Positions 18,980 through 20,181 of a DNA stretch of 32,000 nucleotides are shown piece after piece. The position numbers were made by a program, and so were the translations under genes. The notes below the pieces were generated by a model. The model had not been told where the DNA came from and made no database searches. It was given only the letters and a program-made list of their open reading frames with translations. The stretch is from Methanobrevibacter sp. DSM 116169 (GTDB lineage: Archaea; Methanobacteriota; Methanobacteria; Methanobacteriales; Methanobacteriaceae): NCBI RefSeq assembly GCF_046197865.1, contig NZ_CP166990.1, positions 169,000 through 200,999 of the forward strand. The letters run 5' to 3'. The first letter of the stretch is position 1, and every line of letters begins with the position of its first letter.

Positions 18980-19003
18980 TGTGAAAATACACAATATCAT
19001 GTA
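18980..19003. promoter_or_regulatory. TGTG-N6-CACA box, copy 0 (upstream of the small acidic protein gene)
   Basis: TGTGAAAATACACAATATCATGTA lies 52 nt from the ATG at 18928. Confidence 0.5.
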
Positions 19004-19043
19004 TTAACATTTGAATAAATTCATTAAAATTAATTTATTTTTT

Positions 19044-19084
19044 TGTGAAAATTCACAAATGTGTACTACCAAATAATTTATATA
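19044..19084 (+). promoter_or_regulatory. TGTG-N6-CACA box copy 1 + BRE/TATA promoter of sRNA-1
   Basis: TGTGAAAATTCACAAATGTGTAC, then CCAAATAA-TTTATATA (TATA 19077-19084). The box-to-TATA spacing of 33 nt is identical to copy 2. Confidence 0.6.
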
Positions 19085-19103
19085 GTATTTTAAAGACATT
19101 TAG

Positions 19104-19190
19104 TATTAAGATGCGGGTAAAGCCTAGTATGTCTCGTCACCTTAAGGTGGCGAAATCGGTACTGCTAGGTTCCGGTCTTACTATTTTCTT
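19104..19190 (+). ncRNA. Candidate structured small RNA, copy 1 (unknown family)
   Basis: A 72-nt core (19108-19179) with 36/72 G+C sits in nearly pure A/T flanks. It folds as a three-helix rod (P1 AAGAU/GUCUU + CGG/CCG; P2 CCUAGUA/UGCUAGG; P3 CGUCACC-UUAA-GGUGGCG). The TATA box starts 31 nt upstream and the T-run CTATTTTCTT lies downstream. The ends are estimates. Confidence 0.6.
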
Positions 19191-19300
19191 AGATAATTTA
19201 TCTTTTTCTGATTTTTAATTAATTAAAAGTGTTAAGATTTATAAAAACAATAATATAATAAATTCTTTTTAATATAAATATAAAATCATTTTAGTTATTT

Positions 19301-19341
19301 TGTGAAAATGCACAATTGTGCACCTTCGAAAATTTTATATA
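19301..19341 (+). promoter_or_regulatory. TGTG-N6-CACA box copy 2 + BRE/TATA promoter of sRNA-2
   Basis: TGTGAAAATGCACAATTGTGCAC contains the perfect 16-bp palindrome GTGCACAATTGTGCAC. It is followed by CGAAAAT-TTTATATA (TATA 19334-19341). Confidence 0.6.
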
Positions 19342-19361
19342 TCATTTTAACACATATTTAA

Positions 19362-19447
19362 TATTAAGATTTGGGTAATGCCTAGTAGCCTTGTCACAGT
19401 AGGTGGCGATGTAGGGTGCTGCTAGGTTCTAATCTTATTAATTTTAT
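19362..19447 (+). ncRNA. Candidate structured small RNA, copy 2 (paralogue of 19104-19190)
   Basis: A 71-nt core (19366-19436) with 33/71 G+C has the same three-helix architecture (P1 AAGAUU/AAUCUU; P2 CCUAGUAGC/GCUGCUAGG; P3 UUGUCAC-AGUAG-GUGGCGA). T-run ATTAATTTTAT follows. It ends about 18 nt before the convergent DUF3800 stop. Confidence 0.6.
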
Positions 19448-19464
19448 ATCGAACTTTTATTTAT

Positions 19465-20088
19465 TTATATTATTTTACAATTAGTTTTTAAATTCAATAA
19501 ATTGATATATTCGCTATTATTATATTCATATTTTTGAAAATAAGACCAAGCAATACAATCAATAACTTGTAATTGTTTGTAGCTATGTGAATGACTGTGA
19601 TATATTTCAATAGGAAAATTATTTTTATTTTTCAAACTCTCCAAAAACATTCTGTTAAAATTATTAACATATTTTTCTGTTGGTTTAGATTTATCTATTC
19701 GTATTTCTAATGGATTTTTAACATTAATTAAATTAGCAACTTCACTAGCAACAATATCATATAATAAGTTTTTATTATTATCAAAATCTAATTTATATAT
19801 GTTTTCTTTTCTTAAAATTGCTGTAAAAATTTCTGATTCTGTATAATTTAGTGCATTAATAATATATTTATTTAAATCAGCTGAACTTTCAGTAGCTTTT
19901 AATTCATTGCTTTTTTTAACTTCTATAGGATATTTTTTTCTACCATTTTTAATTATTCTATTTAATGGATCATAATCTCTTTTTATTAAAATTGCTGACA
20001 TAACAAAATAGTTAGAATCCTTTCCTAAGTCTCCACTTTCATCTATATATACATAATCCATAAAATAATTCCTATCCGAATAATTCAT
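19465..20088 (-). CDS. DUF3800 family protein
   Basis: 207 aa. N-terminal VYIDESGDLG and C-terminal QLQVIDCIAWSYF match the DUF3800 signature as I recall it (DESG ... QxxD). Confidence 0.75.
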   Translation of the reverse strand: MNYSDRNYFMDYVYIDESGDLGKDSNYFVMSAILIKRDYDPLNRIIKNGRKKYPIEVKKSNELKATESSADLNKYIINALNYTESEIFTAILRKENIYKLDFDNNKNLLYDIVASEVANLINVKNPLEIRIDKSKPTEKYVNNFNRMFLESLKNKNNFPIEIYHSHSHSYKQLQVIDCIAWSYFQKYEYNNSEYINLLNLKTNCKII

Positions 20089-20153
20089 TTATATTATCAT
20101 TATTCATTTTTTTTATATGTATGATGACTCATTGTTAATTATACTTTCGATAG

Positions 20154-20181
20154 TGTGATTATACACAATATCACATATGCA
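20154..20181. promoter_or_regulatory. TGTG-N6-CACA box, copy 3 (upstream of the DUF3800 gene)
   Basis: TGTGATTATACACAATATCACATATGCA matches copy 0 at 20/26 positions. On the - strand it is followed after 4 nt by CGAAA-GTATAATTA (20136-20149), a BRE/TATA-like element about 50 nt upstream of the ATG at 20088. Confidence 0.5.

Follow-up and report, generated by a model that had tools for sequence, protein, structure and literature searches.

A candidate operator box at the promoters of an apparently inserted DUF3800–RNA module in Methanomonile shimae

The window analyzed here, a 32-kb stretch of DNA from Methanobrevibacter sp. DSM 116169 (Methanomonile shimae Ec1), a methanogen of the cockroach gut whose genome measures 1.93 Mb at 26.4% G+C (PMC13585281), carries four copies of a palindromic TGTG-N6-CACA box in and beside a small module composed of a DUF3800 protein gene and two structured small RNAs (sRNAs). 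We see about an even chance that this box is a cis-regulatory operator placed near the transcription factor B recognition element (BRE) and TATA box, probably bound by a factor encoded elsewhere, which would control the promoters of the inserted DUF3800–RNA module. The box pattern TGTGNNNNNNCACA matches the window exactly four times (18980, 19044, 19301 and 20154), in all cases on the + strand and within a span of 1.2 kb. By comparison, TGTG-N6-CACA is expected 0.20 times on average in 32 kb, and none of 100 dinucleotide-preserving shuffles of the window reaches four. The extended boxes have the common core TGTGAWWATNCACAA. In a scan with a position weight matrix (PWM) built from the four sites, the boxes score 22–25.5 bits, while the next best site in the 32 kb, within a coding region, scores 14.9 bits, and no further copy with up to two mismatches is present in the window. 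The original prediction had reported these four boxes from the sequence alone, each upstream of a transcription unit, and had seen by eye no other such box in the 32 kb; its coordinates and quoted sequences are correct, and the exact pattern, the mismatch search and the PWM scan agree on the absence of further copies. The four boxes are as follows.

18980–18994, + strand: box 1, TGTGAAAATACACAA, then ATATCATGTA up to 19003; carried by the left direct repeat (DR-L), with the putative - strand TATA of an orphan open reading frame (ORF) 10 nt away.
19044–19066, + strand: box 2, TGTGAAAATTCACAA, with the accessory half-site TGTGTAC (19060–19066).
19301–19323, + strand: box 3, TGTGAAAATGCACAA, with the accessory half-site TGTGCAC; the tandem-duplicate copy of box 2.
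20154–20168, + strand: box 4, TGTGATTATACACAA, then TATCACATA up to 20177; carried by the right direct repeat (DR-R), with the - strand TATAATTA that precedes the DUF3800 gene 10 nt away.

A plausible BRE/TATA follows each box in the direction of transcription. Boxes 2 and 3 begin 33 nt ahead of the promoter element TTTATATA (19077 and 19334), and the TATA-to-RNA spacing of the two sRNAs is that of 29 homologous sRNA promoters. Read on the - strand, box 4 continues as CACA-CTAT-CGAAAG-TATAATTA and box 1 as CACA-TTTTGAAAAA-TATAAATA, the end of the dyad being 10 nt from the TATA in both; the predicted position of box 4 beside a CGAAA-containing BRE/TATA-like element therefore holds in its - strand geometry. 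Read in the same direction, each of the four units has a TATA-like octamer, putative in the case of the two protein genes, and exactly 10 nt before it a TGTG or CACA element comes to its end. Each copy is further accompanied by a third half-site, an accessory TGTG or CACA located 2 or 4 nt further on, with the layout CACA-AW-TGTGYAC at the sRNA promoters (boxes 2 and 3) and CACA-ATAT-CAYR at boxes 1 and 4. Box 3 and its accessory half-site contain a perfect 16-bp palindrome, GTGCACAATTGTGCAC, and box 4 doubles as the dyad TGTGAT-N10-ATCACA.

The gene order around the boxes is a 364-amino-acid (aa) housekeeping gene (+), the orphan ORF (-), two RNAs of ~75 nt (+), the DUF3800 gene (-), a tRNA-Arg gene (+) and truD (+). 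Compared with the proteins of the M. shimae Ec1 genome, the DUF3800, orphan and TruD products are 100% identical. The features needed for the following argument are given below.

18656–18928, - strand: orphan ORF, 90 aa, net charge about -11; outside the repeat-bracketed module, with a putative promoter in DR-L.
18962–19038 (core 18962–19025): DR-L, the left bracketing repeat, with a TATA (18962–18969, - strand sense), a BRE and box 1.
19105–19182, + strand: sRNA1, a structured DUF3800-associated RNA (93 bits); promoter TTTATATA at 19077–19084.
19363–19439, + strand: sRNA2, the tandem paralogue of sRNA1 (91 bits); promoter TTTATATA at 19334–19341.
19465–20061, - strand: DUF3800 gene, 198 aa as annotated, with an alternative upstream ATG at 20088.
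20136–20216: DR-R, the right bracketing repeat, with a TATA (20136–20143), the BRE CGAAAG, box 4 and a second palindrome.
20349–20424, + strand: tRNA-Arg(GCG), the right-hand chromosomal neighbour of the module.

The four boxes arose by duplication as two pairs. The two sRNA units form a tandem duplication that includes the promoter (257-nt spacing, 83% identity) and carries boxes 2 and 3, whereas boxes 1 and 4 lie within a direct repeat (18962–19025 versus 20136–20199; 64 nt, 72% identity) that, as read from the sequence, reaches 19038 and 20216 once a 4-nt indel is admitted. DR-L and DR-R bracket sRNA1, sRNA2 and DUF3800, and box 2 starts 5 nt past the end of the extended DR-L, that is, at the left end of the inserted module. 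DR-R holds in addition a second perfect palindrome, TGTTCAAAA-N4-TTTTGAACA (20186–20207), upstream of box 4 in the orientation of DUF3800, while its DR-L counterpart is merely degenerate (TGAAT-AA-ATTCA, ~19012–19023). The identical 33-nt spacing at both sRNAs, emphasized in the original prediction, is correct as measured but trivial, both boxes being products of a single tandem duplication.

When one pair is compared with the other, the likeness does not reach beyond the box, with 12–14 of 15 positions identical within it versus 4–8 of 20 in the flanks, where the background is 7.4 ± 2.2. A composition-aware comparison finds the match of DR-L significant against each sRNA promoter region (p < 0.001) and against the whole module interior (p = 0.003). 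Within both duplicated pairs, all ten bases of the half-sites (TGTGA and CACAA) are unchanged and the differences sit in the spacer, as against 61–63% identity in flanks outside the boxes and TATAs (post-hoc P ~7e-5). Such constancy of ten half-site bases amid DNA that has diverged to ~62% identity makes a functional cis-element likely. The boxes are thus probably meaningful, the half-site pattern and the fixed TATA offset fitting a protein-binding operator. The predicted promoter-proximal regulatory dyad survives in this form, as a non-random element with conserved half-sites, supported by two occurrences instead of four.

In the operator model, a short dyad plus an accessory half-site just upstream of the BRE/TATA would be recognized by a probably dimeric or oligomeric transcription factor, activator or repressor, encoded elsewhere in the M. 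shimae genome, and would control the promoters of a small inserted module of an RNase HII-like DUF3800 protein and structured RNA. One occurrence of the box would belong to the sRNA promoter with which the module begins on its left, and the 257-nt tandem duplication would have made boxes 2 and 3 from it; the other would belong to the promoter segment repeated around the module, giving boxes 1 and 4. This repeated segment would supply the promoter of DUF3800 and leave a copy ahead of the orphan ORF. If so, the four units might be co-expressed as a private regulon.

Archaeal promoter-proximal dyad operators include the NrpR operator GGAA-N6-TTCC (nif and glnA of Methanococcus maripaludis), the TrmB-family TGM TATCAC-N5-GTGATA and the MsvR boxes. 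The box resembles these in being a short inverted repeat with a ~6-nt spacer near the BRE/TATA; such operators also often occur in at least two copies or with extra half-sites, and each serves a small set of promoters. However, the half-site sequence of the box differs from theirs, NrpR operators overlap or follow the TATA or transcription start site whereas the box is upstream of the BRE, and, unlike them, the box is not conserved at orthologous promoters. The bacterial CRP site, TGTGA-N6-TCACA, shares the half-sites TGTGA and (T)CACA, box 2 being TGTGA-AAAT-TCACA, yet the spacer between the 5-mers of the box is 4 bp, 2 bp shorter, and the host is archaeal; no CRP/FNR-type protein was encountered, none having been sought. 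Among regulatory motifs, the box is an ordinary-looking candidate operator of a well-known type, new and specific to this strain.

Several findings weigh against the operator model. Judged by the duplications, the four boxes are two independent occurrences, each later duplicated, and not four. For comparison we used 80 genomic DUF3800 loci together with five closely related ones of metagenomic origin; the box is absent near the ~80 other DUF3800 loci and from the five closest orthologous modules (L001, L003 and L211–L213; ~60% DUF3800 identity and ~83% sRNA identity), an outcome that the original prediction had itself named as one that would refute it. No common promoter motif was apparent by eye in the promoters of these five relatives, a comparison for which no systematic test was made. 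A second TATA-like element at ~20106–20113 makes the promoter assignment of DUF3800 ambiguous, and no regulator is encoded inside or near the module. Finally, all four copies are in the + orientation and three of the four have the asymmetric spacer AAAAT, a pattern more readily explained by a copied 15-mer than by convergence under the selection that a symmetric dimer would exert.

These last features are what copies would show, and the boxes could accordingly be read as functionless relics, a single 15-mer having been spread by the direct repeat, the tandem duplication and an earlier copying from the target to the module end. Both pairs are demonstrable duplications, the absence of the box at orthologous loci is in keeping with such relics, and by our own estimate the raw count statistic becomes much weaker once the duplications and the choice of pattern are allowed for. 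However, with the between-pair flanks at background, the copying must have moved just ~15 nt, and neither the half-sites, invariant next to drifted flanks, nor the fixed 10-nt TATA offset at every copy is in favour of relics. We therefore regard this account as possible but rather improbable.

The box was also sought more widely. Near 18 related loci (113 kb), no PWM match of at least 12 bits is found. TGTG-N6-CACA occurs five times in ~580 kb of other DUF3800 loci, and the two Methanobrevibacter matches inspected are coding DNA, which we take as chance. In viral contigs, the 15-mer has single chance occurrences per contig among the matches listed, and composite 20-base patterns gave two metagenome and (1 + 3) viral matches, all on unrelated contigs and in about the numbers expected by chance. 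One intergenic 24-mer, TTGTGAAAATGCACAATTGTGCAC, in a metagenome contig of 51% G+C (L215:2346-2368; Ga0206947_1332), reproduces box 3 and the accessory half-site without a difference; on this unrelated GC-rich contig it is probably a chance match, 20 of its bases being forced by the search pattern. A search in each locus for the longest exact match between the gene-upstream and sRNA-upstream regions was too insensitive, as it missed the window's own box; its '+' matches, the orientation of a shared promoter motif, were significant only in L012 (14 nt), and its direct-orientation matches pointed to flanking direct repeats.

If the binding factor is encoded elsewhere, the box might instead be the operator of a global host regulator with many genomic sites, the module and the orphan ORF being members of a large regulon. 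No regulator is encoded next to the module or, as the original prediction had noted, inside it. The box in the flanking repeat probably came from the chromosome (the target), to judge from repeats elsewhere that comprise part of a tRNA or a neighbour's ribosome-binding site. Yet ~25 other promoters in the window are all without the box, and it is also missing from 29 kb of genomes with 80–82% TruD identity, in which the module is absent. Taken together, we consider a global regulator unlikely. Only one ORF in the window looks helix-turn-helix-like, and weakly so, at a distance of 10 kb.

The orphan ORF was considered as a regulator and rejected, being highly acidic, without homologues and with a low-confidence helical model; searches of protein sets of 5.8 billion and 1.84 billion found no homologue. 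It probably shares the box only through duplication of the promoter region at module insertion. Of the functional link proposed originally for all four units, the part joining the sRNAs to DUF3800 is upheld by synteny, whereas the link to the acidic ORF probably arose as a side effect of module insertion.

The two sRNAs are genuine structured RNAs. Covariation in the alignment is strong, with compensatory changes at 24 of 28 base pairs and pairing in 91.7% of cells versus at most 47% for slid controls. A covariance model of the sRNA gave 31 matches across the window and loci L001–L042, all on the strand opposite the DUF3800 gene (convergent), and 30 of these lie immediately 3' of DUF3800, within ~140 nt past the matched end and mostly within ~50 nt; in the exception, L018, the RNA match (506-579) is on the other side of the DUF3800 gene (1042-1611). 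In the window, sRNA2 converges with the 3' end of DUF3800, 26 nt from its stop codon. The archaeal RNA is ~75 nt long with the consensus ...CAGGTAAAGCC-stem-GTGTACCTTGAGGTGCAC-stem-GGTTCTG... (for example L013:4597-4667 and L021:4601-4677), and is found in Methanobacteriales and in Micr-, Aenigm-, Woese- and Nanoarchaeota. The sRNA–DUF3800 link, with synteny conserved in 31 loci, is solid and independent of the box.

RNA motifs associated with DUF3800 were described by Weinberg et al. 2017 (PMC5737381), one of them being the Rfam family RF02964 (DUF3800-V). Rfam was searched with the window as well as with 26 DUF3800 loci of archaea, applying both the gathering and the E-value thresholds; none of its families fits the sRNAs, which are absent from Rfam 15, and RF02964 has no match in the sRNA region even at E ≤ 10, while it detects 12 bacterial loci used as positive control at 46–75 bits. 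In these 12 homologous bacterial loci, DUF3800-V lies 3' of DUF3800 and convergent with it, in the same place as the archaeal sRNAs, and the outer layout P1-GGTAAR-P2 ... P2'-GYNC-P1' is common to both. The archaeal RNAs differ in their length (~75 versus 96 nt) and inner hairpin, and score below every Rfam threshold. A promoter box is not known to have been described for the DUF3800 RNA motifs. In terms of position, the archaeal RNA is the equivalent of bacterial DUF3800-V.

The AlphaFold model of the DUF3800 protein has a predicted local distance difference test score (pLDDT) of 93, and its best matches in the PDB are the archaeal RNase HII structures 1eke, 1uax and 2dff (Foldseek E 2e-7, TM 0.55–0.63). 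The protein is thus predicted to adopt an RNase HII-like fold and not that of a known recombinase. An IDESGD motif is invariant in DUF3800, which we take to correspond in kind to the DEAG motif of RNase HII.

Bracketing repeats are not peculiar to the window. A flank-versus-flank comparison identified direct repeats of 15–101 nt in at least seven other genomes, six of the loci being archaeal and one bacterial; the repeats are located 21–82 nt upstream of the gene start and 39–94 nt beyond the 5' end of the sRNA; the distances in the window (74 nt and 66–79 nt) fit these values. The repeat sequences are unrelated from locus to locus, and the paired copies are often non-identical.

L016, 3915-3973 and 4728-4786: repeat carrying a TATA.
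L032, 3922-3979 and 4776-4832: repeat ending in the ribosome-binding site of the neighbour gene.
L038, 1502-1565 and 2393-2456: repeat carrying a TATA.
L064, 3931-3959 and 4731-4759: repeat resembling the 3' part of a tRNA by eye, with a weak Rfam tRNA-clan match.
L026, 3927-3941 and 4734-4748: repeat resembling the 3' part of a tRNA by eye.
L023, 3900-3918 and 4790-4808: repeat resembling the 3' part of a tRNA by eye.
L053, 1024-1124 and 2009-2109: repeat in the bacterial locus.

At the tRNA-like repeats of L064, L026 and L023, ARAGORN called no tRNA, Rfam support being restricted to L064 and weak. The simplest reading of these arrangements suggests that the DUF3800–RNA module (~0.8–0.9 kb) is an insertion that duplicated a segment of its target; boxes 1 and 4 would then be one target-promoter element seen twice, because the insertion duplicated that segment. 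To the right of the module, homology to module-less relatives starts again at ~20262. The relatives with 80–82% TruD identity keep tRNA-Arg and TruD, but their left neighbours differ, and they offer no clean empty site. The module is similar to integrative elements with target-derived direct repeats (attL/attR at tRNA genes, Campbell-type) in that locus-specific repeats tightly bracket it and three of the repeats look like 3' parts of tRNAs. It differs from them in its size of ~0.8–0.9 kb, in having no integrase or transposase, and in the promoter and box carried by the window repeat. A guide- or bridge-RNA mechanism was also considered and rejected, no sRNA-to-repeat or sRNA-to-box complementarity of at least 8 nt exceeding chance in seven loci and the window.

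Such an insertion raises the question of whether the box could be a recombination or insertion site of a mobile DUF3800–RNA module, a core or end-recognition sequence recognized in both the target and the module end. A 4-bp inverted repeat with a 6-bp spacer, the layout of the box, resembles the core sites of site-specific recombinases; direct repeats bracket the module here and in at least seven other loci; and box 2 is at the module end, 5 nt past the extended DR-L. However, boxes 1 and 4 lie 18–44 nt inside the repeats and off the junctions, with both flanks shared, unlike an attL/attR pair, and the module end on the DUF3800 side has no box. In the other modules, repeat and interior are not significantly similar, and inspection by eye across the repeat-bracketed loci revealed no conserved motif at the ends. 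Complementarity between sRNA and target was not found, no integrase is present, and the modeled DUF3800 resembles RNase HII instead of a known recombinase. We think a recombination site quite unlikely.

A broader and speculative view, which we also hold to be unlikely, is that DUF3800 and its structured RNA constitute a minimal self-inserting module of ~0.9 kb, with promoters, 5' regions or tRNA genes as its landing sites and 15–100 nt of the target duplicated, whereby DUF3800 would gain the promoter of the target, the box being part of that biology. Here the box could control a promoter region of the module that was formerly divergent, or be a site joining module and target.

The function of the DUF3800–RNA module has been unexplained since the RNAs were described in 2017. 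In this respect, the box is useful mainly as an experimental handle, as a 15-bp probe might fish out the regulator of the module. The more consequential result is that DUF3800–RNA pairs appear as small insertions with target-derived repeats that supply a promoter; if true, the insertion behaviour and the RNase HII-like model together would provide a concrete hypothesis for a widespread protein–RNA pair without an assigned role.

Further observations concern the surroundings of DUF3800 genes. In L001, two CRISPR-like (clustered regularly interspaced short palindromic repeat-like) repeats (GTTTAAAATCAGACCA..TGGAATTGAAAT) with a 34-nt spacer lie directly upstream of the DUF3800 gene (5870-6000), and one CRISPR-like repeat copy occupies the same place in L003 (~3470-3500). 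The source genome encodes a second DUF3800 paralogue, P0117, of 178 aa, which is 46–48% identical to the window DUF3800. Elsewhere in the window, an island resembling an insertion sequence is located amid housekeeping genes, with an HNH endonuclease gene (6865–7830, - strand) beside a DDE_Tnp_1 transposase gene (8094–9164, + strand).

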